A stretch of 33,152 nt of DNA, filler included, from Fonticula-like sp. SCN 57-25 (lineage: Eukaryota): the NCBI GenBank assembly GCA_001724245.1. It is 3 parts of 3 records of this genome, joined end to end, with 100 filler letters (N's around TTAATTAATTAA, not from the genome) between each part and the next. Parts side by side here need not be neighbours in the genome. Positions count along the whole stretch, not along the records: positions 1 to 18,483 come from MEDX01000746.1; 2 more parts are not named here. One strand, written 5' to 3'. The notes under the pieces are model-generated. The model had not been told where the DNA came from. It did no database searches and saw only the letters and a list, made by a program, of their open reading frames with translations. The translations under genes were made by a program, and so were the position numbers. Positions 1 through 27,400 of the stretch are shown here, one piece after another. How positions within the stretch are numbered: position 1 is the first letter of the stretch; every line of letters starts with the position of its first letter.

Positions 1-2062
1 ACCGACTCTTCCGTCTACCTCGCCGAAGCCACCGGCAACGAGTTCAGCTCCTTTAGCGAACGCTCATTGGCTCCCATAATCCCAACAACGCTTCCCTATT
101 CGCTGCGCCTATCGAGCGTCTCATTGGCTGATGACGGTGCGCTGTTGCCGCTTGCTATAAATAGCGGGTCGATGGCGCTGTTTGATGCGGGGATTCCGGG
201 GGTGGATAGGCCGGTGGCGGCGGTGAATGTGGGTGTGGTGGGGGGGGTGAAGGAGGGGGAGGAGACGGTGTTTTTGCATGACTTGTCGGTACGAGATAGA
301 AGTTAAATAGGGGTTATTGTGGCATGAATGCGTGGTTAATGGTGATGATATTGGGTATTAGTGTTATTTGAGTGTGTATTTTGAATGGATTGTCATGTTT
401 ATGAGGCATATATACTTGTATCATTCATGGTTATTGTGTGTTTCAGCTCTTGTTAATGTGTGTTTATGATTGTATATTGCTCATGTTTGCTTTGTATGAC
501 TTCTTATCTCCATATCTATCTTTCACTTTTGTCATATATCTCTCTGATTATTCCTCTGAAACTGACACTTTTTAATAGTTGCTTGAAAGTGCCCATTCGC
601 CCATCCGCATGACACTTGCCGGCACTCCCTATGGCCTTACCTCAATCCAGATGGACGCCAAACTGCCAAACGCAGCCGCAAGCATCGCAGACATCAAAAA
701 GGGTACGTTTAATGGTTTGGCCACGTGGTGTGCTGACATGTGGACAGCATTGCGGCAGGCGTGTGAGAAGCTGCAGGGGACGATGGGCGAGATGGCGGAC
801 GTGATGTCGACGCCGCGCGTGGGTCTCAAACCGACTGCGCCCGTATTTGGTGCGTGAATGTTAAATTGCAAACTGCAAACTGATGAGTCACGTGATGTAG
901 CTGAGGTTGGGATTGAAAAGGGGCGCGCGCGGCAGTTGGTGGGAATTGGCGGGAAGACGATCAAGGCGCTGCAGGCGTCGCACCGTACGTGGCGGGAAAA
1001 GATTTGGCGGAAAATGAATTTTTGTGGGCCAGAAGAACAATTTGGGTCATTTTGGGTCATTTTGGTGTATTTTTGGGGTGTGTTTTTTGTGTCATTATAA
1101 TGTATTTTTGATGTGTTTTGTGTCATTTTAGCATCTTTTTCTGGTTATTCATGTCACTTTTGGATGTTTTTCCCATGTTTCTCCTCTATTTTTCCTTCTC
1201 TTTCCCCCTTTTCCCCCCTTTTCTCACCTTTTTTTCTCCTTCAGCTGGCGCCCGCCTCGACGTTGACGAAGACGCCGAAGTCGTGCGCGTCTTTGCGCGC
1301 TCTTCCACTCAACTCAAAGCCATCCGCGAGTCCATCCTTTCCCTCGCCGGCCGCCTCGAGCGCGGCTCCGTCCACCAAGTCCGCGTGAAAACGGTCGTCG
1401 ACACGGCCGGATGCGGCGTCGAATTCGTGGAAATGCCCGGCAGGGGCGAAGGTTGGATTCATATTAGCGAGCTGTCGGCCACGTGGCTCTCGAGCGCGAG
1501 CGAGGCGGTCAAGGTCGGGGACGTGTTTGAGGCGGCAATTAAGGGGTTCGATAAGGGAAGGCCGCAAATGTCGAGGAAGGACGTCGGGAAGGACCACGTG
1601 GGTGTTGTGACGTCAGAAGAAGAAGACAACGGTGAAGTGGTGGCGTCGGTGACGTCATCGGTGACGTCATCTGTTACGACGTCGTCAGTGTCGGTGTCGT
1701 ACAGGGAGAGGCCGGAAAAGACGGCGGAAAAGTACGAAAAGACGGAAAAGTATGAAAGGAGGGGAGTGACGTCACAGCGTCCTGCGCGTCCCATTGGTGG
1801 CGGTGATCGTCCACGTGGTCCTAGGGGCAAGCATTTGGACGACATTATCGCGGCGCACACGGGCGACGGCGCTGGCCGCGGCGAAAAGCACAGGAGCCAT
1901 GGTCACGTGGGGAAGAGTCACGTGACAAAGGGTCACGTGAAGGGGAAGGTGAGTGCGGTTGGCGCTGCGGCGGCGGAGGCGGCGGCGGTCGTTGAGTCGT
2001 CGGGAAATCCGGCGTGGGACCAGCTGTTTGAGGACCTCGTCAAGAGCAAGGAGGAAAAGTAA
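1..2062 (+). CDS. PNPase-like protein (RNase PH2-KH-S1), 5'-truncated by the window, catalytic residues degenerate
   Basis: Exons 1-288, 579-702, 748-849, 901-984, 1245-2062 join in frame via GT-AG introns. Motifs: PYSLRL..SMALFDAGIP, LAGT..GLTSIQMD, KH 'LVGIGGKTIKALQ', S1 'EGWIHISEL..VKVGDVFEAAI'. Confidence 0.85.
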
Positions 2063-2313
2063 TGTACAGAAATCTATTCAGTTTTGGCGCTTTCTTGTAT
2101 AAATATAATACGAAATGAATTGCATGAATACTGTACGGATACACCAGAATCATTGTATAAAGTATACTTGTCGTATACAGTATAGGATGTTGTCAGCAAA
2201 CAACATATCGGTCTGTCGGATTCAAGCAAAAACATAATTATTCATGCCTATGGACGCACTTCAAGTGTGCATAAAAAAGGCTTTCAGATAGAGATAAAAG
2301 CAAAAAAAATATT

Positions 2314-2399
2314 GCCTGCAGCATCGAGTATTCCGGCGTGGTCACCCTCCGCTGTACTGACTCGACCAGCACGCGCTTGATTTTCGTGAGCGAGACGGG
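2314..2399 (-). pseudogene. 5S rRNA copy lacking the normal 5' third
   Basis: 86 nt identical to the 3' part of the copy at 2705-2811 (CCCGTC...AGTCAGTAC..GGTGACC..GGAATAC..GCTGCAGGC), followed by a T8 run. Upstream sequence does not match the 5S 5' end. Confidence 0.8.
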
Positions 2400-2704
2400 T
2401 TTACACATTGGGATTTTCACCTACAATGATGAGGTATATCTACAAAGGTGTACTTCATAAACGCCACGAGATGAACAACTGTGAAAAATGTATTGCTTTT
2501 GTGAACCCTCAAACTACGAAACTTTCCTTTGCTGCATGCAGTATCCTTCAAAATGTAAAATTGGCGGGAACGCATATCGGCTGCTAAAACTTGGCCAAAT
2601 CAAATCCGAATAACACTGCAAGTCAAAATAATACCATGTCAAACATTACTCTATCATAAAGGACTAGCTTGCGTCGTGTGCAAACAAAGCAAAAAAAAAT
2701 GATT

Positions 2705-2811
2705 GCCTGCAGCATCGAGTATTCCGGCGTGGTCACCCTCCGCTGTACTGACTCGACCAGCACGCGCTTGATTTTCGTGAGCGAGACGGGCACGTGTGTA
2801 TGGCCGCAGAC
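2705..2811 (-). rRNA. 5S: 5S rRNA gene or variant with an ~11-12 nt internal deletion
   Basis: Starts GTCTGCGGCCATAC and ends GCTGCAGGC plus a T9 run. Helix I pairs, and helix II pairs fully (CACACGTG with CGCGTG-C-TG). Length 107 nt versus ~119; the 5' side of loop B and helix III is missing. Confidence 0.8.
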
Positions 2812-2989
2812 ATACAAAGATGAATCAAATCTCCTTTTATACACATCACATTTATGACGAATATCAAACTGAATGACACGATACCAAAGAAGAGGCTTTC
2901 GTATTGATGCAAAGACATGCCATATGAGATATGTGCAGAGTCAAATTCCATAATGAATATATTCGTGTTGATTATGATACATGCATCTT

Positions 2990-5396
2990 CTACTCGTCCT
3001 CCTTGTACTTTTCGATTGCGTCCTTGAGCTCCTGCGCCGTCTTCTCGCTCGTCGTCCTAAACATGAACGTCTTCATCTCGGTTTCGTCCGAGCCCTCCTT
3101 CTTCATGACAACATTGAAAGTAACATCCTTCTTTTGCACGCCCGCCTTGACGAGCGGGAAGAGCGGCGCGTTCAGGAGCAGCTTGCCGCTCGTCTCGTTA
3201 CGCGAAACAACGCGGCGCTTCTTGGTCGTGTCGTGGCGGTAAAGCCGGAGATTCGACACGCCGAGGACAGTCCAGGCGCCAGCGACAAGCTCGTACAGCT
3301 TGAGGCGGTCAACCTCAAACAGGCACGTCTCGGCTTTTTCCTCTAATTGGACATGGGCATGTGAGTTATTGATTTCATGAGCGGGAAGGGGAAAGCAACA
3401 CAAAAAAAATGAAATCCACACATAAAAATGCACTTTGCGTGTCAATACCGTAACATTACCACATCAATACCGTATCAATACACCATACACAAACACTTTT
3501 TCCTTTCACAAATTCCTTTCCCTTCCATTTTCACTTTCATGTTCCCTTTTCGCACCTTCACTCTTCTTTCCGCCGAGCGCCGCGACCTCACCCGCCGTAA
3601 TCGTCTCATCCTCACCATCATCGCCGTCGTCACCTTCCGCATCGCCGCCGCCCACCTTGAGCCCGAGGGCGCCGCCCCCGATGCTCGGCGTCTGACCGGG
3701 CAGGAACGCGGGCGCGCCGCCGCCAAAACCGCCAAACAGCGGCGCGGCCGCCTTGCCAGCGCCGCCGCCGAACGAGAAGGGCGTCGAAGCGCCGCCGCCA
3801 AACGAGAAAGGCGCCGCCGTGCTGCTGCCGCTGCTGCCGCCAAAGGAGAGCGGCGCACCTGCGCCAAAGGACGCGGGCGGGCCACCAAACGAGAACAGCG
3901 ACGGCGCGGGCGCAGCCTTTTCATCCTTGGTCTCCTTGGCCTTCTCCTCCTTGGCATCCTTTTCCTTCTTGGCGGGCTCAGCGTCATCGCCATTGCCATC
4001 TTCGCCTTCATCTCCTTCACCCTCACCATCATCATCATCATCATCAAGGCCTTCAAGGTCCTCGTCATCATCCTCTTCGTCATCCTCACCGTCCTCTTCG
4101 TTCCAGTCCTTGTCGCCATCATCACCATCATCTCCAGCATCGCCATCATCACCATCATCATCACCGTCATCATCGACATCGACCACTTCGGCGGCGCCGC
4201 CCTGCATCAGCGAGCGCTTGCGAGGCCCAGCCTTGCCTGCAACGCGCGCGATCGACGGCGGCGCGGCCTTGGCGGCCTTGGACTCGGCGTCGTCCGTGGA
4301 CGTGATGCCCTCAAAGCTAAAGCTCGGCGGGACCGCCGACGCGGACAGAGGCTTGAACGAAAAGGACAGCGCGGGGGCCGCGGCCTTGGCGTCGGTCGCG
4401 GCAGGCTTGGAGTCGGCCGTGGGCGGAGCAAAGGCAAAGACGGGCGCAGCCTTGGCGTCGAACGCCGGCTTGGCCGGGGCAGCCGCCGCCGCGCCAAAGC
4501 CAGAAAAGGCGCTCGAGGCGCCGCTGCCGAGGGAGGCGAACGGGCTCGAGGTCGCGGCAGCAGGCTTGGACGCGCCAAAGTTGAAGACGGGCGCCGGGAG
4601 CGACGCCGGCGGAGCGGGCACGGCGGCCTTGGCGTCCGTCTCGGTCGGCTTCGGCATGGTTTCCGTCGGCTTTGTGGCAGTTTCGGTCGGCTTAGGGGAG
4701 GCGGCGGCGGGATCGTCCTTGGGGATCACGGCGGCGAAATCCTTAATGATGTCGTCGCGGAACCGCTTGTACTGCGCGATCGGGACGCTCAGGTCAGCAA
4801 AAGCGTTCTTGTCAACCGTCGACGTAAGGTGCTTCATGAAAGACACGTTGAGCGCGCGCAGCTCGCGGTAGTACCCCTCGGCCGTGATCGCCGACGAGCT
4901 GTACGGCTTGCCGGCAGGGGCGGCGGCGGGGGTGGGGGCGGCCGCCGGGGCGCTGCCAAACGCGCTCGCAAAGGGAGAGCTCGACTTGGCGGGGGGGGCG
5001 CCAGAGGAGGGCGCGAGGGCCGCAAAGGGATTGCTCGTCGCGATCGACGTCGTGCGGCGCGTGATCGTGGCGATCCTAAACAAGCAGGTGAGCAAAAGTT
5101 GAATGGAACAAGTAACAAAAGACACGAGAAAAGAAATTTAAAAAACACAAAAGTAGCGCATTGCGCATCAGATAGTAAAGAGCGACACGGAAACTTGTGC
5201 CAAAAGTGGCGCGTTTCGTACTTGCGGGTGGCGAGGACCTGCAACCCAGTTGGTTAGAGTCATTATACCCAAAAGAACCAAAACGTACAGATGAGCTAGC
5301 AATGGAGGGACCCTGGTCCGCAACAGTGTCATCATCGTCGTCGCTTACGTCCTCCCTCCGGCGGTGTTCGCCTTCAGTTTGGCGTTTTTTGCTCAT
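2990..5396 (-). CDS. NUP50: Nucleoporin Nup50/Nup2 (FxFG repeats, acidic tract, C-terminal Ran-binding domain)
   Basis: N-terminus MSKKR..EDVSDDDD..ASSSVLATRKI (includes a 17-nt exon, 5222-5238). Many FSFG/FNFG repeats. RanBD-like 'KLYEL..WTVLGVSNLRL..RNETSGKLLLNA'. Confidence 0.85.
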
Positions 5397-5529
5397 GGCG
5401 CGCGTAAGGCCTGCTGCCGTGCGATGAAAAACGGACTGGTCACGTGAAATGTTCATCACGTGATTTCGGCCACGTTTCTCGCGGCATCTCGGCGGAAAGA
5501 GTCTGCGATCAGCCGCCTTTGTAGCGCAC
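5397..5529. promoter_or_regulatory. Bidirectional promoter (Nup50/MRPL46) with two TCACGTGA E-boxes
   Basis: 133-bp gap between divergent ATGs; TCACGTGA at 5440-5447 and 5456-5463. Confidence 0.55.
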
Positions 5530-6592
5530 ATGTTTTCATTGCGTTCTGCGCCGCTTCGTGGCGCGCTGAGTGCGTTTTTTACTGTCCAATTGTGCGCATT
5601 ATGTTACTAAATACTCCTCTTTCTCTCCATCTTTCAGCGCGCGGGATGGCGACGTCGCCAAAGTACTGGGTGGGCGTGGTGCTGCAGCGTAATCCCGTCG
5701 TTCTTCCCGACCCGACGCCAGAGGAGGAGGCGTACAACGCGTACCAGCTGCAGATCGAGACGGAAAAGTCAAAGGCGTTCAATCCCAGCGTACGCACGCG
5801 GCATGCCCGCCGATTCCCGCTGAAGCTCACAGCCCAATCCCCGATCGTAGTTTTACTACAAGAAGAGCGACTCGAAGAGTATCGAGCAGATCCAGCAGCA
5901 GCAGGCCGCGCAGGAGCAGGAGCTCTTTACTGAGGGAGCGCGTGTCACCGAGGCCGACAAGACAAATGACCAGCACAGCCTCCAGAGGTGCGCCAAGCTG
6001 ATCCTGCGTGATCGGGCGACGATGGGGTCATTTTCCGCTGGTTTTTGTTATGTTTTGTGGATATTTTGTGCTGCTTTTTATTAGCAGTGTATTTTTTAAT
6101 GCTGGTTTTTGTTTTTTGCGGCACGGCGCTGCTTGTGTGAATTTTTCGCTTCCTTTAATCCACCTTTGGCTACTTTTTACCACTTTTTCCGCGTTGTTTT
6201 CGCGTTATTTACGTTATTTTTTGTTTAGGAAACTGTCTCGTACGTTGTACCTTTTGACGAAGGACGCGTCGTCTGGCCGCTGGCAGTTCCCGCTGATGCC
6301 CGCGCCCGCCGACCACGAGCTCAACCAGGCCGTCTCTAATCACGTGACGAGTACTTTGCTGACGCACCGTCCGCGCGTCTTTGTCCCCGGCAAGCTGCCG
6401 CAGGCGGCGCTCGAGCGGAGCGGCTCTCCGCCGACCTTCTTCTACTGCGCGCAGCTGCTGCACGGCCACGTGTCGCTCGAAAAGAGCGCGGGCATTGCGG
6501 ACTACAAGTGGGTCGACAAGCAGGAGGCGCTTGAGCTCATCAAGGACAATGGCGAGCTCGCAAAGGCCGTCGAGAGGATCATGTTTAATTAA
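5530..6592 (+). CDS. MRPL46: Mitochondrial ribosomal protein mL46
   Basis: Four exons. Presequence-like MFSLRSAPLRGALTRG; 'VLQRNPVV..PTPEEEAY'; 'RVTEADKTNDQHSLQRKLSRTLYLL..WQFP'; 'DYKWVDKQE'. Confidence 0.9.
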
Positions 6593-6802
6593 GGAAAATG
6601 TAAACAAAATTTAAATAACAACTTATCAACACTAGAATGATGTGGGCGCTTTTAGTTGCGTCCTGGTGCATGGACGTGCATGTACTGCAAGGACGGAATG
6701 TGCAATCAATATTGATTATTACTCTGCATTCATTACTCAAACATACTACTCGACCAGAGTGAAAAGCAGCCACAAAGAGCCAAGCGACAAAAGTAAAACT
6801 GA

Positions 6803-8601
6803 CTAGAACCCGCTGACTGATTTCGTGTCCGTCTTCTTGAGCTTGCCGCGCATCGCGTCCATGCCCGCGAGCATCGGATTGGCTGGCGCGGCCGCTTGCG
6901 GTGCCTTTGCACCACCATTTGCCGCGCCTCCACCGCCTCCACCGACTGCTGGTGATGACGAGTCGCGCGTCGTCGTCTTCTTGAGCTTGGCACCCTGCTG
7001 GATGCCCGCCAACAGCTGCGAGCGGTCGCCTCCAGAAGGCGGCCCACCAGCGGCGGGCGGCGGTGGCGGCGGAGGCGCAGACGGGGCCGGCGGCGGCGGT
7101 GGCGGCGCAGGGGCAGCAGCTGGCGGCGGCGGTGGGCCACCTGCAGCTGGAGAAACACTGCCTGCAGCTTGCGTCTCCTGGGCGCGGGCCTCTGCCTGGC
7201 GCTGCTTCTCCTCTGCAATCCGCGTGCGCTCCTCCGCCTCGCGGAGGCGCCGCTCCATGTCGGCACGGTCGCGCTCGGCGCGCTGCTCGGCGTCGCGGCG
7301 CGCGGCAGCCTCGGCTTCGGCGGCGGCCTTGGCGGCGGACAGCTCCGCGGCGGCAGCGGCGGCGGCGGCGTCGGACCGCGCAATGGCTGCCTTGGCCTCC
7401 TGCTCAATGCGGTCGCGCTCGGCGGCGGCAGCAGCAGCGGAGGCGGAGGCGGTGGCGGCCGCGGCAGAGGCGGCGGCTTCGCGCTCAATCGCCTTTGAGG
7501 CGAGTTGCTCGGCAGCGGCCTTGTCAGCGGCGGCCTTGGTGGCAGCTTCCTTGGCCTTGTCTGCTGCTAGTTTTTCGGCTGCTGCCTTATCTGCGGCTTC
7601 CTTGGCGGCCTTGTCGGCAGCCGCCTTGTCAGCAGCGGCCTTGTCTGCAGCTGCCTTGTCGGCCGCGGCCCTGTCTGCTGCTGCTTTGTCTGCAGCGGCT
7701 TTGTCTGCAGCGGCCTTGTCAGCCGCGGCTTTGTCTGCAGCGGCCTTGTCAGCAGCTGCTTTGTCCGCCGCGGCCTTGTCAGCGGCGGCTTTGTCGGCAG
7801 CGGCCTTGTCGGCGGCTTCTTTGGCAGCCTTTTCAGCAGCTGCTTTCTCGGCTGCTGCCTTGTCTGCCTCGGCCTTGTCCTGGGCCGACACTGATACGGC
7901 GGCCATGTCGGTAGGCCGCTTGAATGTGTTGGCCTTGAGAGCGACGCCGGCCGGCTCCTGCGGCTTCGGTGCGGCCGCCGGAGCCGGTGCAGCTGCGGCT
8001 CGCGTCGCAGGAACGGGTGCAGCGGCGGGAGCAGCGCTGCGAGTGGGTGCGGCTGGCGAAGGGGCACTGCGAATGGGTGCCGCTGGCGAAGGGGCACTGC
8101 GAATGGGCGCCGCTGGTGAAGCGGCGCTCCGATTGGGCGAGGCTGGCGAAGGAGAAGCGCGATTGAAAGTCGCTGCTGACGTGGCGACACGACTGGGCGA
8201 GGCGGGCGAGGGAGCGGCACGAGAGGGCAGCGCGGGTGACGGCGCCGGCTGTGCGGCGCGCGGCGCAGGGGCGGTGGCAGCCGGCCGTCCAGCGGTCGGT
8301 GCCGGCGCTGGCCGACCAGCGGCTGGCGCGGCGGCAGTGACATCGCGCATCGCCTTGAATGTGTCTGTTTTGCTGGTGAATTGCTTGACCGTTGGCCCGC
8401 TCGAAGACGCCTTGCTCACAACTCGCCTGTCACACGGTCAGCGCCACAGAGGGAAAGAGAGAGCGCGCACTTTGGCTGGACGTGGACATTGCCAGGGGTG
8501 CCAAACTGGGCTTGCGCACCGAGCATCGCTAGCCGAATCACGGCATTGATCTCCTCCTCGTTCTGCTCGGGAAGCGGAGCCTCGTCATCAGAGTCGGACA
8601 T
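6803..8601 (-). CDS. WH2-domain, polyproline, Ala-rich helical-repeat actin regulator (WIP/verprolin-like C-terminus)
   Basis: ATG at 8601 and one 44-nt intron join ORF 6803-8419. PPPPP tracts, WH2 '[18 protein letters not shown]', second WH2-like '[11 protein letters not shown]'. Confidence 0.8.
7520..7875 (-). repeat. Coding 15-bp tandem repeat, (D/E)KAAA x ~20
   Basis: Repeated GACAAGGCCGCNGCN units with synonymous variation. Confidence 0.9.
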
Positions 8602-9196
8602 TGTCAGAAAACGGGCTGGATAAAAGGTGAATCGACCGCCGGAACAGAGGTAAGCCGACGGACGATGTGTGTCCAGTGTTTGTTGTATGACGAATTCCTC
8701 GGGGAAGGGGCGGGCCAATCAGAAGCGAGGATTTCTGGATGACGAAGTGGTCTCTGGCATGTAGCAAAATGAACCACCATAAAGCTGGGACCATACAAGA
8801 AACAGGCAAAGGAAAGGTTTATTGGAAGCAATGAAGAGAAAAGTGGCGTTGCTAGTGCATCGTGTGCGGCGCCACTTTGGCCCTACTGGGCAGAAAAGTC
8901 TGTTTGCACTAGCAAATTATGGCCATATTGGCCCATCATCAAAGAGGAATGAGGGCAAATTGCCAGAATAATTATGGACAGCGATACTACATTGTCCGTA
9001 AACTGTATTTAAAGGATTGTAAACAAGTCTATGTGACGAACCAACGGCGCGCCACTCTTTAGCAAGCACAAAATGAATAGAGCGGGGATATACGAGAGGA
9101 AGAGAGGCTAGAAGAACCGAATGAAGGCGAGATCGCTTTCGCGACAAGAAGAGAAATAAATGACATCAAATGAATTGAATAGCATTTATGATCGAT

Positions 9197-10821
9197 CTAC
9201 GACGAGGCGGTGGCGACCGCGGGCGTGGCGCCAGCGGGCACCGGCGTGCTGCTGCTCAAGTACTCCCAGTTGCTGACCATGAACTTTTGGACGGCGATGA
9301 GCGCCTCGTATCTGACATTGTGGTCCTGGTCGTTCATGAGGTCCATGATGCGCGTCTTGGCGCCAATATCCGTGACGATCTTCTTGCCGCGCGGGTTGAC
9401 GCGGACGTACTCGCCAATGTCGTGGCAGGCGATGGCGAGGTGCAGCGGATTGGTCGAGTTGTTGAGGATCTTGGCGAGCAGGCGCAGGATCTCATAGTCA
9501 TTCTCATTCAAATTGGTCGCGTTGAGCTTCCAGAAAGAGTCCGAGCGGTGCACCGGCGACCACTCGAGGTTGCCCGACCGCACCTCCGACGCGTACTCGT
9601 CAAACGAGCTCAGCGTCTGCACGTTGCGCTGCAGCGCATGCAGCAAAAAGTCAACGTCGGCGGGGATGTCCTCGTCAGCAAACTTGCGGGCGGAGAGAAT
9701 GTTGCACAGCGGCAAAAGCTTGTTGTCGGCCATCGGGCCAAGATTAACCGTCGGCGCCTTCTCGAGCATGTTCTGCGCGCAAAAGAGTGAGCAACAGCGC
9801 ACTTTTGCAGCACGGTACGTACACGAAGGCAGGCGAGCGCGACGCGGATGACCTTCTCCTTGAGCGCGCCCTTGATGACGTCGACGAGGATGGGGATTGT
9901 GTTCCACTTGTTGAGCGACGCGGCGATGGGCGCCGAGAAGGACAGGAGCCAGAGGCAGAAGATGACCTGGTACTGTACCTGGAAGTTGTTGTGCTTGAGC
10001 TTGAGCACCTCAACAAGGCGGACCATGCCGTCGGGCGTCTCAAAGTACTTGACGCGGAAGCGCTCCTGCAGCAGGAGCGTCTGCAGCGCCTGCACGGCAG
10101 TCTCAATGTGGGCGTCCTTGACGGTGCGAAGGCGCTCGCTGATCCAGTTGAAGTAGCCATCAAGCTCGGCGGGCTTCATCGAGCCGCCGTGCGTAAGCAG
10201 GCAGGCCACAATCTTGCTCGCCTTTTGCGTGATGTAGTCGTCGTCCTTCTGGAGGCACCGCAAGAGGGGCGAGAAGGGGAGCGACTCGTCCGTGCGGCCA
10301 GCCTCAACAAGATGCTGCGCCTGCGTAGGCATCCCTGTAAAGCAAACAAAAATTAAAGGGAGAAAAAACGGTGCAAGAAGACGCCACAAGCAAAAGATTC
10401 ACAAAGACATGAAAATGGGCGCGGCACGAGGGAGAGGAACACGTACAGACAAGAATGTCGTCAATGACCGAGAGGAGGTAGCGGATGGGCTCGTCCTTGT
10501 TGATCTTGTTGACAACATTGAGGAAGCAAAGAAGGATCTGGCGACCGTTCTGCTCGAGCAGCTGGCCCGACATTACGCGATCGTGCTTGTTCACCTCGTA
10601 CGCATTGATGATGTCAAACTCGACCTGATCAATCAGCTGCGCGTGAAAGTATTGCTAAAAGGAGCGCGCAAAACGAGGCGTGAGCATAGGGAAAGATATA
10701 AATAAAAATGCATGAAAAGCAGACGTACATCCCACATGATGCGGTAGGTGCGGACGGAGGGGCTCTCCTGTTCCTCGAGCACCGTAGGCACCACCGAGAA
10801 AGAGATGGGCGCGACGCTCAT
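9197..10821 (-). CDS. ATP6V1H: V-type ATPase subunit H (Vma13)
   Basis: Four exons. 'QVQYQVIFCLWLLSF', 'KEKVIRV', 'LSSFDEYASEVRSGNLEWSPVHRSDSFW', 'ACHDIGEYVR', 'VRYEALIAVQK'. Confidence 0.97.
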
Positions 10822-11185
10822 GATGCTGCACAAATTAGGGCAAACAAGCGCGTCAGGTTAGCCACATAAATATTTATATAAATTTGCGCACATTCGATCT
10901 TCTGCTCGTGCCTGGAACTCTTGCGCGTTCTGCAATCTGCCAGGGATTTCGAGCACCCGGGTTGCCCGATCCTCTCTCTGAGCAAGAGCAAGAAAAAACA
11001 GGGTTCCCTATTCCGGAATCATTTCGATTCCAGTTCTGATTTGTTTGATTTGTCTGATCGGGTCAGAGGGGCCACAGTGCTGCGGCAGGCGTGTGCTCTT
11101 CCTCAGGCCACTCTCTCGGCCCACTTTTTGATAGTTTGTGTGTTGCTCTGAATCTCGCTCGCTGCGCGACCGACAGGAGAACACC

Positions 11186-11796
11186 ATGTTTCAGAGGATT
11201 GCGAGCCAGATGCGCTCGCCCGAGTTCCGCTCGTACTTGATGAGCACGGTACGCTTGCTTGGAGCGACTTGCTAGTTTTCTAACCTTGGGCATCACAGCA
11301 CTTTTGGGGACCAGGTACCAGACGTGTCACAAAGTGTTTCCCGCCTGTTCTAACGCTCGCTCGCTCTCTCGCTTTCTCTCTCGTCCTTCTCGTTGCTTTC
11401 CTTTTTTTCTTGCATAGTGGTTAATTGGACGCTGCCTATCGCGGCGATTGCTGACACCAAGAAGAGCCCAGAGTACATTAGCGGCAAGATGACCGTCGGT
11501 ATGTTTCCCTCCTTGCGAGGCGAGCCCCCTTTTACCGTAAGCTGACACACGCCGCCACAGCCCTGTCGCTGTACTCTCTTTTGTTTATGCGCTTTGCGTG
11601 GATGGTGAAGCCGCGCAACCTGCTCCTGCTCGCGTGCCACTTGACCAACGAGACGGCGCAGCTTGCTCAGGGGTACCGGTTCATCGACTGGCACTACAGG
11701 TACGCACGCCTGCGTGTCGTGGAACAGCGTGCTTAACGTCCGGCGTGTAGGGGTGGGAAGGAGCGTGGCTTTGTGCCGCCGGCCGCCAGCGCCTAG
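11186..11796 (+). CDS. MPC1: Mitochondrial pyruvate carrier 1
   Basis: Five exons give '[70 protein letters not shown]'. Includes a 16-nt exon at 11299-11314. Not captured by the ORF track. Confidence 0.95.
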
Positions 11797-12246
11797 GGTG
11801 AGTGACGGACCAGGTGACGAACCACATTGTACTCTATACTGATAATATTGACCGAGTGGATTTGCAATTACTGAAACGGTTAAGCGACCTTTGCGGCTTT
11901 GTGGACATTCCTTGCAAACGGTTTGTCATATTCGATTGCAAGTTGACTTGCACGGTATGAATTCAGACGATACACCGCGTCCTTAGTCTCGACACCTTTA
12001 AAAAGACGCGGGCAGCATACACAAAACAACAACGTGCGGGGCTCTCAGTAGATAATGCCCACGGCAAGTAATGTACCAAGTAGTCACGCTTCCTGCAAGC
12101 CCACGGCATGTTTGCACGCATGTGAGGCCTGCCTCTACCTCTGCCTGCCTCCACCAGCCACTGTGCCTCCCAGGTGCCTCCACCCGTAAAATGCACAGTC
12201 ATCGTTTACTCCTGCACGTGAAATCTGCTTTCGGGTGGTACAGGAG

Positions 12247-13283
12247 ATGCGTGTGACGGACGCGATCCAGACGTTCCTCGCGGGCCTTGTGCTCCTCTTT
12301 GACGGCTTTGTGACTCTGTGCGGGTCCCTTGTGGTCCTCTACAAGGCCCTCGTTGCCAAGGCGCCGAAGCGTGTCCCCAAGAGCATCCTCATCTCGGGTG
12401 CTTCCTCGGGCATTGGTGAGTCGCTCGCCGTCGAGTATGCCCGCTCCGGCGTGACCCTCGGCCTCATCGGCCGCAATAAGGGTATGCGCTCTTTTCTGCT
12501 CTTTCTCTGATGCAATATGTGCTGTGTGCGGGAATTAATTGCGGCCGCCATCCTAGAAAACCTTGACGCGATTGCCGAGCGCTGCCGCGCCAAGGGGGCC
12601 GTCGTCGAGGTGTTTGTGATGGACGTGCGCAAGGAGAAGGAGATCGCCGATATCGTGCTCGGCTTTGACACTCGCCACGTTGTTGACCTTGTTGTTGCTA
12701 ACGCGGGCATCAGCGCCGCCATGGTTGGTACGACGGACCCCGATCGCTGCCTCGCGTCCCTAACGCGTTTGTCGTAGAGGGCGAGCTTGATGTTCGTCTC
12801 CGCGCAGTGATGGACGTGAATGTGAATGGCGTGTTTAACACTGTTCTTCCCCTCATTGAGCGCTTCAAGAGCCGCCGCAACGGGCAGATCGCCGTCGTGA
12901 GCTCGATCAGCGGCATCGCCGACTACCCGCGCAGCCTCTCGTACAGCATGAGCAAGACCGCCCTCAACAACTTTTGCCGCGACCTTCGCGAGCTCCTCAG
13001 CCACTACAACGTTGCCGTCACGGCCATTTGCCCCGGCTTTGTGCAGACCGGCTTTACCAAGTACTCGATCATGCGCCGCGGCTCTGTCCCGCTCCTCATG
13101 GACGTTGCCACCGCGACCAAGATCATCGTCGACGGACTCGAGAAGAACGCCCCGATGATCACCTTCCCGACGCCGCTTTACTTGCTCGCGTTCGCCATGC
13201 GTGCGCTCCCGGCCACCATGCTCGACCTCATCGTGCCCCTGATCGCTTCCAGCAAGAAGCAGAGCTGGGATCACATCGGCTAA
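12247..13283 (+). CDS. Short-chain dehydrogenase/reductase with N-terminal hydrophobic segment
   Basis: Three exons. SGASSGIG, ANAG, VNVNG, SS, catalytic YSMSK, PGFVQT. Confidence 0.92.
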
Positions 13284-13431
13284 GCGTGTTTGTGATTGCC
13301 TGTCGCCTCAATAACACATAATCATATCAATATGTCGTCTATTCAGATACTGCGAGTTGGGAAACAGAATTCGCATATAAACTATCATACAGCTGCGACT
13401 GAAAGTATGTTACACATGAAACAAAATGAGC

Positions 13432-14109
13432 CTACTTTTTCTTCTTGGATGGCGTGTTTGACTTTTCTCCGGCGGACGAGCCGGCCTCCCTTGCTCCGAG
13501 CACCGCGGCCATGTCCCAATCCAAAAGCTGCTTCTGGATGCCTCGTACCGTCGGCGCAGTGAGATGCTTGGCCCCGCGCGACCCGAACGTAAAGGGGTCG
13601 CACGCCATGTACGCTTGAAACTCGTCGACATGGTGGTCGCAGTGGTATCTCCTGTTAATAAGCTCCGCCGTGATAAGCCGCTGTTCCGCCTCGGTCAGCT
13701 TGTTCCACAGAACGTCCGATTGCTTGCGGTACATCGGGTCGTAGTGGTACAAGATGTGACGCTTCTCGTGCGCCAGTGTCTCGTGATCCCCTTTGAGGTA
13801 CGCGATCACGTACGGGCGCGTGTCCTTTCGAGCATGCTTGCTCAGCAAGGCGTCTAGTAATGAACGCTCCTCGGCGCTCACGTCGGTCCCGGCAAGCTGG
13901 CTCCAGGATACCAGCGTCGACAGGGGAGCATTGAACCCGGTGTGCTTGGGGAGGGTCTTGCTCGTCGTCTCCCACTCGGCAAGCGAGATGTACTTGTCGC
14001 GGTGCAACACATTCTCGTAATAAGTGGCAATGCGGGAAAGAGCCTTGTTCAGCGCATCTTTGTCCACAAACACCAGCGACGTATACCGCACGTCGTGGGA
14101 GATTTCCAT
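13432..14109 (-). CDS. Hypothetical 225-aa protein with HExxH motif
   Basis: Intronless ORF with globular composition; 'TLAHEKRHILY' and downstream 'DEFQAY'; ends KKKK. Confidence 0.7.
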   Translation of the reverse strand: MEISHDVRYTSLVFVDKDALNKALSRIATYYENVLHRDKYISLAEWETTSKTLPKHTGFNAPLSTLVSWSQLAGTDVSAEERSLLDALLSKHARKDTRPYVIAYLKGDHETLAHEKRHILYHYDPMYRKQSDVLWNKLTEAEQRLITAELINRRYHCDHHVDEFQAYMACDPFTFGSRGAKHLTAPTVRGIQKQLLDWDMAAVLGAREAGSSAGEKSNTPSKKKK

Positions 14110-14206
14110 TCGCGCGTCAGACGGTAGCGTGCGATGCTGCGTGTCACAGAGCTCCCGCCATCAACCAGTTTGCAGTTTGCATCGATCCACCTGGCCCGTA
14201 CCCATC

Positions 14207-14700
14207 ATGGCGTCGTCCGACTTGTCACACATTCCTTGTGAGGACTACGCCTTTTTCAAGCGCGCGCTTCAGCAGCACCGCAAGGGCAACGACAATATTA
14301 CGCACAAGCTCAATACAATCGATGTAGAGGACCCGCAGTCTTGCAGCACTCTTCTGGCGCACTTCCGTGCTGGCCGTGATGAGCGCATCCGCAACATCAA
14401 CCGCTGCGTCAAGGTTCAGGAGGAGGCGACGGAGTCGCTCAAGGCGCAAGTAGCCGAGGCCACGCCCGAGACGCGGACGAGTTTGTCCGCCGCTCTGAAT
14501 ACACAGGCAACCAAGGTGCGATATGCTTACAAATACCCTTCTGTACGTCTTACCAACACCCTCGCTTCTCTCTGCAGCTCCGACTGTACCGCTTCGAGCT
14601 GGACCAGGAGGCAGTCACGGAGGAATTTACAATGGCAAAGTTCCGCGAGCGTTGCCGCGTGCTCGAGATCAGCGGAGCGATTCAGACGCCGTCGAATTAG
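14207..14700 (+). CDS. MIX23: MIX23/CCDC58 (Cid2 family) intermembrane-space protein
   Basis: Two exons. 'CEDYAFFKRALQQHRKGNDNITHKLNT..C..RDERIRNINRCV..ELDQEAVTEEFTMAKFRERC'. Confidence 0.88.
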
Positions 14701-14878
14701 AGCCCTTGCTCGGACATATAAAGCCCCGCCCCGGACCAGGCCTACCATATGGATTCACACTGCTGTTTTGATATTCCCCTTTTCCTTGTTGACAGAAAAA
14801 GCAAATTTTTCATCCAATGATACATTTTATATACATATTTGGCCAACTATTGTTACACGTGTCGACCACATATCGGGT

Positions 14879-15529
14879 CTACGTCTTGGCGACGACGACA
14901 CCGTCGTCAATAACGACGGGCCACGCGCGTTTCTTCCCTTCGCCGTGGGGCACAATTCGCTGCGCAATTGAAACACGAGGCAGCTGCTTCCTCGCAGCAT
15001 CATTCAGCATGAACGACTCTGTTGAGATGGTTGGCGGAGCCTCATCATCGGAAGTAGATTTTCCGACGACAAGATGCACCAGCATGAGTGGAAGCCGGGA
15101 CTCGCGGAAATGCTGCTGCGCGGCGGGTGAGAACCCCCGCTCGCTCACAAAGATGCCGACCACGGAAGGCGACTCGCGGAGCAACGCGCTTTCGAACCCG
15201 CGCACATCAGCACTGCTGGTCTTTTTAATCTGCGCCTTGCACTGCCCCACAACCGCGACACGTCTAATGGATCCATTGTGTTAGAAAAGACTACTCAAAG
15301 TGACTGGGGTGAGGTACCCGCTAGACGGTAGGTGCCAATGACCTCGAAAATCGACGCCACCGTCATGCGCCGCTCCACACACTCGAACATCAAAAAGAAG
15401 CAACGATAGTACGTTGACGGTGTCGTGCTCGAACGCTTGCCCTTTGCGATACCGTTCAGCCTGTACCGTTAGGCACCGTCGACTGGGCGCTCCGAGTCGC
15501 AGAGCGGTACCCACCACCGTCCAGCGCAT
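14879..15529 (-). CDS. RRG7/DUF2034-like mitochondrial protein with PD-(D/E)XK-type fold
   Basis: Two exons. 'KGQAFE..VCGAAHDGGVDFRGHWHLP..VVGQCKA..VRGFE..GFS'; presequence-like start. Confidence 0.75.
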
Positions 15530-15619
15530 CGTTTCGTCGTGGTGGCGGGAAACCTGCCCAAAAAGCACTCCTGATTCTGCCCCTGATTCACTTTTGGCGC
15601 ACTTTTGCCGGCGACGATC

Positions 15620-17222
15620 ATGAGCTTTGGGGAGGTGCGAAGAACGGCGTATACTGCTCTGCCTCACCGTATTCTTACTGTTTTGTTTGCTGCAGTACAC
15701 GGCGGACGACCGGTTTTTGGTGATTGATGGAGGTGGGTATGCGACAAAGGCGGGCTTCGCGGATCCGCTGCGACTGCCATCCCTCGAGATGTCCTCTGGC
15801 GTGAGTTTGTCGCGCAAGACTGGGCACTACCACGTCGGCTATGTGCGCGACCAGGCGTCCGAGGAAGTCAAGGCGGAGCTTGTGGACCTTGGCTCGCCTT
15901 ACAAGAATGGCGAGATCGTCAATTGGGATGCTGCTGAGGCCCTTTGGAAGTTTGTTGTTGAGAGCGAGGCAGAGACGAGGGACGTCCCCGTCCTGCTTTG
16001 CGAGAGTGTCCACACCTCGCGGAGCGACAGAGAACGCATTGCCCAGGTGCGGTCATTTGCGGCGCTCTGTCGATTATTGACGTTCTCTAGACTTTTTTCG
16101 AGGGGATCGGGTCGCCTGCGCTGTACAGTGCTCCTCGCCCGCTCATGGCCCTGTACGGATGCGGAGCCACGTCGGGCTTTGTCATTGACATTGGCCACGA
16201 GGCGACCGGTACATAATGGTGCTTTGTGCGTTTTGTTGCTAATAGGCCTGGTTAGATATCGTGCCAATCATTGATTCTGAGGTTCAGCAGTATGCTGTGG
16301 TTAGCTACGATGTTGCTGGCGCGGACCTCGACGACTATCTTTATAAAGTGCGTGTTGTTTACTACTTTGCTGATGTGCCTAACACGACAAAGCTTTTGGC
16401 CGCGGAGAAAGGAATGGCCGGTCTGACGACGGCTCATGCGCGCCGGATCAAGGAGACGATGGGTCAGGTGGGCATGCACGCCAAGGGAGGCAACGTCGCT
16501 CGCCTCTCTGATGAGAAATTTGAGCAGGACGGACTGGTGCGCTTTTGCATGCTGGCTTTCTTTGAATGACTGTGCTGATTGTTGAGGACGCTGCAGTCCT
16601 TTACGGTGGGCACCCAGCGGCAGAGGTTTTCAGAGGCGCTGTTTGCGCCCTCGATGGTTGGAAAGTGCGTCCCTTTCCTTTTCGTTTACCCTCGTCTAAC
16701 AGCTCCAAAGGTCGAGCAGTCTTACACTTGCGGATGCCGTTGAGCTCGCCTTGTCAAAAGTTTCGACGGATGTGCGCAGCGCTGCTGCTGATGCGCTCGT
16801 CGTCGCGGGAGGCCATGCCCAGATGCGAGGTGCGATATGATCTGTAGCGGTGCTTCCTATACTCATTGGTTTTTGCAGGGCTGGCGGATCGACTTGTGCA
16901 GGACCTGAAGCGCGTGCGCACCGCAGTGACGCGCGATGACCGGGCCGTCGAGCTGAAGGTGCGCCTGTGACCGGGGCTGACGCTGGTGCTAATGTTTTCC
17001 GATAGGCCCTTTCGATGGGCAAGTATCTGACGGCGACACACACGCGGCCAGACTGCGCGAGCTGGGTGGGCGCTTCCGTTGCCGCCAAGGTGCGTTAAAC
17101 ACTTGCTTTGTGTTTGGGTTCCTCATGCGTTTGGTTAGCACGTATTCCCGAGTCAGATGCATGTTAGCAGGGCAGCATACAATGAGTACGGTCCGGGAGT
17201 TATGCACAGGAAAGAGTTGTAA
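15620..17222 (+). CDS. Divergent actin-related protein (Arp9-like)
   Basis: About 10 exons join in frame: VIDGGGYATKAGFA, IVNWDAAEALW, MALYGCGATSGFVIDIGH, AGADLDDYL, SWVGASVAAK, YNEYGP. Confidence 0.85.
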
Positions 17223-17809
17223 TGCATTATATGAATCCATGCTATATAAACGTTGCTTGTTTCTATTCGCTGGTTTTGCTTAAGCACTGTCAGAGGCCAA
17301 TAATGCCTGTGAAGGAGCGGTTTCTATACAGCGATGCAGCAGCGTAAAGGGCGATGCGTGTACACTCTCTTCTCAGAGTATTTTTGCAAAATACGCCTCC
17401 GCTGTAATGGCGCACTTGCCGTTGAACCCTCGTCAAACGACTCATGGGCGCCTCGTGCTGCATTGTTTTGCACCTGTTGCTGCAGTTTCATACAGATAGC
17501 TTCCTGGCTTTGTCACCGACTGTCAAATTGCAGCAATTGTGCTCTTTGTGCTCGTAAATTGCTGAGCTGGCCTTTGGCGTATGATTCTGCATCCCGTTCT
17601 CCATTGCTATCTGACAATGTCAATATGCATGCACAATGCGTTGTTCGAACGGTATAAAATCAGCCCTGGATTCCACCCTGCGAAACAAACACTTTCCAGC
17701 GACAGGATCCGGGCTCACCGATGACCGTTCCTCGAGGCATTATGTACCCTGTGTAGTGTGGACGTCGACGACTATGGCCATTCCGAGTTCCCAGTGAGAA
17801 GCGCTAACG

Positions 17810-18483
17810 CTTTTGGGCGTACTTGACTTTTATTTATGTCTACGACGTCATAACGGACTCGGTGAGCGGTATCTTCGACCTTGCGACCAGAAGAAACTGC
17901 GCCTTGTCGGCTCCGCCGAAAAAGACTCCCTTGCTGTGCAGCAGCGCGCTGGCTTGAGAACGTGATCCGGGCGTACCTCACGTTTTGCATGTCGGCTCCA
18001 AACATTATTGCCTCGGTCAAGGGAGTCCTCTTCGACCTTGCGACTTGAAAGAAGTGCTCCTTGTCTGCACCGCCGAAGAAGGCTCCCTTGCTGTGCAGCA
18101 GCGCGCTGGCTTGAGAATGTGATCCGGGCGTTCCTCACGTTCTGCATGTCGGCTCCAAACATGATGGCCTCGGTCAAGGGAGTCCTCTTCGACCTTGCGA
18201 CATCAAAAAAGTGAGCCTTGTCTGCATTGCCGAAGAAGGCTCCCTTGCTGTGCAGCAGCGCGCTGCGCCACCGCTTGAGGACGTGAGGGACGTCCTCGCA
18301 CATGAAAGTGCCGTTGTCGTCCGCCTTGAACCATTCGCCACCAGGAAAGCCGTCGTCGGCGGCGGCGTCGCGACAGGCCAACAACAACAGGAGGCCACGC
18401 TGCTCTGATACGGGAGCGTTGTCGGGCACAACTTGTCCGCGCGCTACAAGCTCCGAGAGTACCTCCGCCGGGCCCTTCTTGGC
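17810..18483 (-). mobile_element. Degenerate P-element/THAP9-like transposase fragment with a ~3x 157-bp internal array
   Basis: 'EDVPHVLKRWRS' resembles the D-x-x-H-L-L-K-x-x-R motif, and 'ADMQNVRNARITFS' resembles D-x-M-x-V-x-x-A-x-x-F-S. The anchor TTCGACCTTGCGAC recurs at 17874, 18031 and 18188. The frame breaks at each unit and the sequence runs into the gap. Confidence 0.55.
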
Positions 18484-18583
18484 NNNNNNNNNNNNNNNNN
18501 NNNNNNNNNNNNNNNNNNNNNNNNNNNTTAATTAATTAANNNNNNNNNNNNNNNNNNNNNNNNNNNNNNNNNNNNNNNNNNNN
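18484..18583. other. Assembly spacer N44-TTAATTAATTAA-N44
   Basis: Artificial all-frame-stop linker; linkage across it is unproven. Confidence 0.98.
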
Positions 18584-27300: not shown

Positions 27301-27400
27301 NNNNNNNNNNNNNNNNNNNNNNNNNNNNNNNNNNNNNNNNNNNNTTAATTAATTAANNNNNNNNNNNNNNNNNNNNNNNNNNNNNNNNNNNNNNNNNNNN
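27301..27400. other. Assembly spacer N44-TTAATTAATTAA-N44
   Basis: Same artificial linker as at 18484. Confidence 0.98.

Follow-up and report, generated by a model that had tools for sequence, protein, structure and literature searches.

A PNPase-like gene with a lost PH2 active site in Fonticula-like sp. SCN 57-25

The window analysed here, a stretch of 33,152 nucleotides from the assembly of Fonticula-like sp. SCN 57-25, opens inside a gene whose product is a PNPase by descent and fails all three catalytic features tested, these being the RBRII motif, the phosphate site and the metal site. Known here from the PH2 domain onward, the gene appears to encode a PNPase with a dead PH2 active site that keeps its KH and S1 domains. 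Against a profile built from 71 intact PNPases, the spliced product reaches 161 bits (E 2e-49).

Gene structure and domain content

The window joins three contigs through N spacers (18484-18583 and 27301-27400); contig C746 accounts for positions 1-18483 only, so the neighbourhood past 18483 represents no real linkage. Base 1 is the start of C746 and lies within the PNPase-like gene, five exons of which are present (Table 1). Joined, these give a single open frame of 471 codons, in keeping with the claim of the first-pass annotation that frame is kept across all four introns. The gene end which it placed at 1590 was not borne out, as the open frame continues to a stop codon at 2060-2062 and includes a low-complexity tail. 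All introns are GT-AG and each has a branch-like CTRAY/CTCAC word 14-34 nt 5′ of its acceptor. The domain order read from the spliced product is PH2-KH-S1 in a single chain, then the tail. GC skew changes sign at the two long introns, from +0.57 (145-288) to -0.26 (579-702) around intron 1 and from +0.37 to -0.20 (1245-1400) around intron 4, and this flip may have shaped the residues replacing the G-rich metal motif.

Table 1. Features of the PNPase-like gene and its neighbours on contig C746 (window positions)
Feature	Position	Strand	Evidence or remark
First visible exon, N-terminal two thirds of PH2	1..288	+	Pfam RNase_PH E 5.7e-7
Place of the lost RRExGH (RBRII), reads ATGNEF	28..45	+	Profile alignment with L059 extension; register uncertain by ~2 residues
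Remodelled phosphate loop ADDGALL at the position of ESNGSSS	127..147	+	
Intron 1 (290 nt), splits the metal-binding motif, phase 0	289..578	+	Sole other AG within 500-640 is at 589
Exon with dead metal site S100, R106, T108, then conserved AGT, QMD-K	579..702	+	
Intron 2 (45 nt)	703..747	+	
Exon, last PH2 helix and PH2-KH linker	748..849	+	
Intron 3 (51 nt)	850..900	+	
Exon, KH first half, GIGG at 942-953	901..984	+	Pfam KH_1 E 0.068
Intron 4 (260 nt)	985..1244	+	
Last exon (1245-2062), part one: KH end and S1, IHISEL at 1457-1474	1245..1582	+	Pfam S1 E 1.6e-4
Last exon, part two: low-complexity tail of ~160 residues and stop	1583..2062	+	No family match
5S rRNA copy	2313..2424	-	32.7 bits; 5′ end replaced
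5S rRNA copy	2704..2811	-	54.8 bits, above Rfam cut-off
Putative Ran-binding nucleoporin-like gene	2990..5137	-	
V-ATPase subunit H	5448..6589	+	Putative
MRP-L46	6806..8437	-	
WH2 protein with alanine-lysine repeats	9200..10700	-	
Short-chain dehydrogenase	12702..13280	+	
Actin-related protein	15624..16271	+	

The sequence L059 extends the gene 147 bases upstream of base 1, with an AG acceptor ~35 nt before base 1 followed by FYFHVEVPQFATD, which matches FFLHYEFPPYATN of the intact PNPase P0019. The longest upstream extension found is 165 nt, mostly intron. No further 5′ half was detected in the assembly by DNA search with L059:1-147 or by searches with PF01138, PF03725, PF03726, TIGR03591 and the intact relative P0120, and a metagenome scan of 598 stretches gave three loci, one of them this same gene, and nothing more of the 5′ half. 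The N-terminal PH1 and helical domains expected of a PNPase (with R93, R97 and R100), trimer contacts and any targeting peptide would lie in this unassembled part.

The best PDB matches of exon 1 are to the PH2 domain of human PNPT1 (E 1e-11), the best exosome-type chain reaching 0.005, while the last exon aligns over its residues 1-113 with residues 591-699 of PNPase 4am3 (E 4e-8). The KH GxxG and S1 IHISEL motifs are retained, as first read; by Pfam the S1 domain is above cut-off and KH_1 is below it. The PH2 domain scores 75 bits with a PH2 profile and 37 with a PH1 profile, which lends no support to a PH1 domain joined to KH-S1 or to a PH1/PH2 chimera. The predicted fold of exon 1 alone has a pLDDT of 53, gave no Foldseek match and is uninformative.

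Two 5S rRNA copies, each followed by a T run, lie in the interval that separates the PNPase-like gene from its first neighbour; the upper-scoring copy has a loop shortened near model positions 33-44, and the other looks like a partial duplicate. The remaining neighbours are ordinary genes without a functional link to the dead PNPase.

Loss of the active site and selection on the frame

The positions of E. coli D486, D492 and K494 hold S100 (588-590), R106 (606-608) and T108 (612-614), and the profile alignment is gapless across the exon 1/2 joint, as the first-pass annotation had described. The phosphate site S437-S438-S439 has become A-L-L, the remodelled loop being seen in both the PDB-match and profile alignments. 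RBRII (R398, R399, H403) is also absent, which upholds the earlier reading: L059 supplies the start of exon 1 and so puts that stretch inside one exon, in an interval that has no Arg or His, and the possibility that RRExGH lies upstream of the window is thereby rejected. None of the nine site residues (R398, R399, H403, S437-439, D486, D492, K494), as defined in the accessible part of PMC5416783, is kept. They are 79-100% conserved among 168 intact PNPases, a set chosen for having both aspartates, so that the conservation of these two holds by construction. According to the same portion of that source, a survey covering 3509 PNPases from prokaryotes and 252 from eukaryotes described 8 of 10 residues of the active site as absolutely conserved (PMC5416783).

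As intron 1 interrupts the metal motif, a hidden exon or alternative splice site was looked for. In no frame does intron 1 or intron 4 contain the motif, and the alignment runs through the joint without interruption; mis-splicing and a hidden exon were therefore rejected. Sequencing error at the metal site was likewise rejected, with X2, X4 and L059 all giving the same letters.

The loss appears to be concentrated on the active site rather than spread over the protein. At positions at least 90% conserved, residues are kept at 2/19 in the site loops, 23/36 in the rest of PH2 and 10/11 in KH/S1 (Fisher p 1.7e-4 for loss by region). In E. coli, going by the text available of PMC2723993, D492G abolishes both phosphorolysis and polymerisation and H403A lowers both activities tenfold. 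From the site loss and such mutants, the protein is almost certainly catalytically inactive. Acidic residues do persist at the positions of E. coli D480 and E485, and the phosphate loop has gained the aspartates D44 and D45, as might be expected of an enzyme with a rebuilt active site; with three PH2 sub-sites lost together, an arginine at D492 and single changes there abolishing or cutting activity (PMC2723993 and PMC8836086, as far as their accessible text goes), an enzyme of that kind is hardly credible.

With the PH2 profile this PH2 domain has the lowest score of all, 82 bits, where 185 intact domains reach at least 221. It reaches 42 bits with the PH1 profile, as only 2 of the 185 do, its phosphate loop and following helix having drifted toward the motif of inactive PH domains. 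Atlas neighbours are Rrp41-like clusters at 0.90, which is a lead only. This drift, together with an N-terminus that lies outside the assembly, would suit a cytosolic or nuclear protein with a new role, for example an exosome-like RNA adaptor acting through the long tail. Such a role is very improbable, as the PH2 profile still scores twice the PH1 profile and the genome encodes ordinary exosome subunits and Dis3.

The dead motif was found again in other assemblies. Run X4 is identical to the window over 1-391 and 381-716, and a piece of run X2 (503-640) has four differences, all intronic; run X1 is identical too, but may be the source of the window. L059 is identical over window 1-897 save at base 851, with GG for GT at the intron 3 donor, which is taken as an error since X1 and X2 both have GT and the depth of L059 is 3.5-fold. 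In the folded part, 6 of the 7 listed exonic differences to X2 are synonymous (p 0.0014, with 25% synonymous sites), and with five more in the tail the count becomes 11 of 12 among those listed. This count leaves out a cluster at 1720-1735 between two compensating indels and 17 further differences and the 7 in the piece 611-722. As it is limited to listed differences and comes from contigs of low depth (3-5), it is read as support rather than proof. The listed indels are intronic, save one frame-keeping pair in the tail. The reading frame thus appears intact and selected.

These data bear on whether the gene is a decaying relic with little remaining function, its activity having become superfluous when a Dss1-type nuclease took over. 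The low PH2 score would fit decay, as would a branch that is the longest or near-longest in the trees (1.28-1.75) and the distance of relatives: a search of 1.84 billion representatives gave 139 matches, the first being the gene itself and the others 29-47% identical. Decay is nonetheless improbable, given that the losses cluster at the active site, the five exons are open with canonical splice sites, the strains show a synonymous excess among listed differences, and the listed indels spare the coding frame.

Related dead PNPases, host and candidate partners

The gene is not a singular case, as was first supposed, similar dead PNPases being present in several other lineages. Among 233 aligned sequences, with merely truncated rows set aside, a set with a complete PH2 domain misses one or both metal aspartates. 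These come from the trebouxiophytes Nannochloris desiccata (P0158, P0155 cluster) and Auxenochlorella protothecoides (P0023, RMZ53248.1), the choanoflagellate Stephanoeca diplocostata (P0024), an MMETSP sequence (P0133) and metagenomes (P0060, P0066), and there are two full-length, bacterial-looking proteins (P0007, P0069) without RRExGH and with one or both of the metal aspartates missing. Common to them are the replacement of D486 and/or D492 and of K494 and an altered RRExGH, and most have F at the first position of LAERAL. They keep 2-4 of the nine site residues, in contrast to none in the SCN 57-25 protein. Among the papers listed for the literature searched, with subscription journals largely outside it, there was no account of natural inactive PNPases.

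The algal dead PNPases form a separate clade inside the chlorophyte PNPases (99.9), beside intact Chlorella and Micractinium genes. Its members (P0003, P0023, P0154-P0162, P0167, P0168, P0170, P0176, P0247) are of mitochondrial type, come from cultured algae and are annotated as ordinary PNPase. Most PH1 arginines are still present in P0003 and P0023, as would suit a ring that binds RNA. The SCN 57-25 protein groups with P0024, P0060, P0066 and P0133 in a long-branch cluster, with support of 0.98 in FastTree and 82 and 11 in SH-aLRT, and mixed once the site columns are removed. Placed alone among intact sequences it falls weakly (62.6) inside the eukaryotic PNPase group, and with other long branches included it falls outside the mitochondrial PNPase (PNPT1) group. 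Given this mixed tree support, a single clade of dead PNPases is not established. With the algal clade apart from the long-branch cluster, there have apparently been at least two losses of PNPase activity in eukaryotes. A homologue search with five diverged sequences returned, besides two query members and P0276, bacterial-named or nameless proteins. In the PNPase-like proteins P0024 and P0092 (Amoebophrya), additional KH repeats appear to stand where S1 is expected.

The assembly has 9.5 Mb in 749 contigs and is mixed and incomplete. A composition comparison of 20 regions gave a main group including C746, C63, which carries EF-1alpha, C64 and C66; C305, C514 and C652 (GC 45-46%) stand apart and C215 and C463 are intermediate. 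The assembly holds a second eukaryote of ~45% GC, represented by C305, C514 and C652, which brings duplicate exosome subunits. The EF-1alpha of C63 has an insertion, absent from the plants in the alignment, that we take to be an opisthokont marker. A tree of 111 EF-1alpha sequences places it, weakly supported (0.79), among environmental sequences that lie outside the named fungi and Holozoa; chitin synthase PF03142 gave no match in the incomplete genome. The host, an uncultured single-celled protist, is thus read as an opisthokont related to animals and fungi, and the EF-1alpha data fit a relative of Fonticula without showing one. The fungal frame in which the first-pass annotation had set the gene is not supported for a host weakly placed outside named fungi, and the contrast with fungi lacking PNPase is accordingly weaker.

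Searches of the assembly with PF01138, PF03725, PF03726, TIGR03591 and P0120 found no second PNPase in what is an incomplete genome, although two PNPase-specific searches did pick up this diverged gene. Judged from their translations, the other seven RNase PH loci encode exosome subunits, MTR3 being the best eukaryotic match in the PDB for two of them. The main organism can be assigned no more than 4 of the 6 PH subunits of the exosome, and the incomplete assembly yielded no Suv3; for these reasons the absence of an active paralogue is weak evidence.

If the assembly lacks an active PNPase paralogue, the present protein could be its inactive partner or its regulator in a mixed trimer, comparable to Rrp42 beside Rrp41 in the exosome of archaea. 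Counted by exosome subunits the assembly is about two thirds complete, and no Suv3 was found in it, which leaves room for such a paralogue; the 23 of 36 non-catalytic PH2 positions that are kept fit preserved interfaces. Profile and protein searches nevertheless gave no other PNPase trace, and the dead and intact trebouxiophyte genes are in different species, with no species having both kinds among the 120 matches listed, a list so insensitive that P0023, itself part of the query, is absent from it. A mixed trimer is therefore possible, if doubtful. Of the original proposal, the dead, selected PNPase with KH and S1 domains is supported by alignment and strains, whereas its heterotrimer found no partner in the incomplete assembly.

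There are four RNB loci in the assembly. The RNB protein on C64, in the same composition group as C746 (r 0.85-0.90), lacks Dis3-type PIN and cold-shock domains and keeps the DDxxxxExDD motif. Its best match is RNase II, and it aligns with Dss1 (6f3h) over residues 200-579 (E 5e-12). It is a putative RNase II/Dss1-type nuclease, and its Arg-rich N-terminus suggests that it may be mitochondrial. The check for Suv3 and Dss1 proposed with the first-pass annotation thus yielded an enzyme of the second kind and, in the incomplete assembly, no Suv3. Yeasts, other fungi and trypanosomes use Dss1, and in yeasts and trypanosomes mitochondrial PNPase is described as entirely absent in the accessible portions of PMC9014873 and PMC9181182, which make no mention of nucleariids. 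Plants carry RNR1 as well as active PNPase (PMC9181182, same portion), so an RNase II-type enzyme by itself implies no takeover.

Proposed role and comparison with known systems

On balance we favour an inactive ring that stands alone, binds RNA and is probably located in the mitochondrion, while a hydrolytic nuclease does the cutting. By analogy with known PNPase structures, the protein would form the usual ring and its KH and S1 domains would bind single-stranded RNA. Phosphate and Mg2+ presumably could not be placed in the dead site, so that RNA would be neither degraded nor polymerised. The protein may, more tentatively, act in the mitochondrion as the sole PNPase of the organism, although an active paralogue may simply be missing from the incomplete assembly. 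The ring might channel RNA, hold or protect RNA 3′ ends, or offer its S1 domains as a dock for the Suv3 helicase; the cutting would fall to a hydrolytic enzyme of RNase II type (Dss1/RNR1-like). There is precedent for non-cutting use of KH/S1 in an RNA carrier complex of E. coli (PMC8294330), and the S1 domain of human PNPase is reported as a platform for SUV3 (bioRxiv 10.64898/2026.09.06.749684), while RNA import by PNPase is disputed (PMC3790967), each as given in the part of the source available.

The protein resembles mitochondrial PNPase (human PNPT1; PDB 5zf6, 3u1k, 9njb) and bacterial PNPase (E. coli 3gcm; TIGR03591) in its PH2-KH-S1 order, PH2 fold residues, KH GxxG and S1 core; it differs from both in having lost RRExGH, S-S-S and D486/D492/K494 and in its added tail. 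Its mode of action would be like that of the inactive core of the eukaryotic exosome, in which a dead PH ring and an RNA-binding cap are combined with an RNase II-family cutter (PMC8836086 and PMC5416783, in their accessible sections). However, the exosome core has nine separate subunits, and its PH subunits (Rrp41, Rrp46, Mtr3) have a single PH domain without KH or S1, whereas here PH, KH and S1 are in frame in one chain of PNPase descent. The nuclease of the exosome is Dis3/Rrp44, while in SCN 57-25 the link to a nuclease is a putative one, proposed from genes in the same assembly. As with the fungal mtEXO (Dss1-Suv3; PDB 6f3h), there is a gene for an enzyme of Dss1/RNase II type here; unlike in yeasts and trypanosomes, a PNPase gene is present, and Suv3 was not found in the incomplete assembly.

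A broader reading, which we regard as speculative and unlikely, is that organellar PNPase has repeatedly become a pseudo-enzyme and that the ring is here coupled to a Dss1-type nuclease, replaying in the mitochondrion the exosome's loss of phosphorolysis, as a living intermediate between the PNPase-Suv3 of animals and the Dss1-Suv3 of fungi.

A selected PNPase without its PH2 site residues, together with dead algal and choanoflagellate copies, would mean that the ring does something besides cutting RNA. The carrier, RNA-import and helicase-platform roles proposed for PNPase are disputed, since it is difficult to tell them apart from RNA decay, and naturally dead PNPases would make that separation. 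The hosts of the algal dead PNPases are cultured and sequenced, so that these could be tested now, and the finding bears on the exchange of PNPase for Dss1 in the fungal line.
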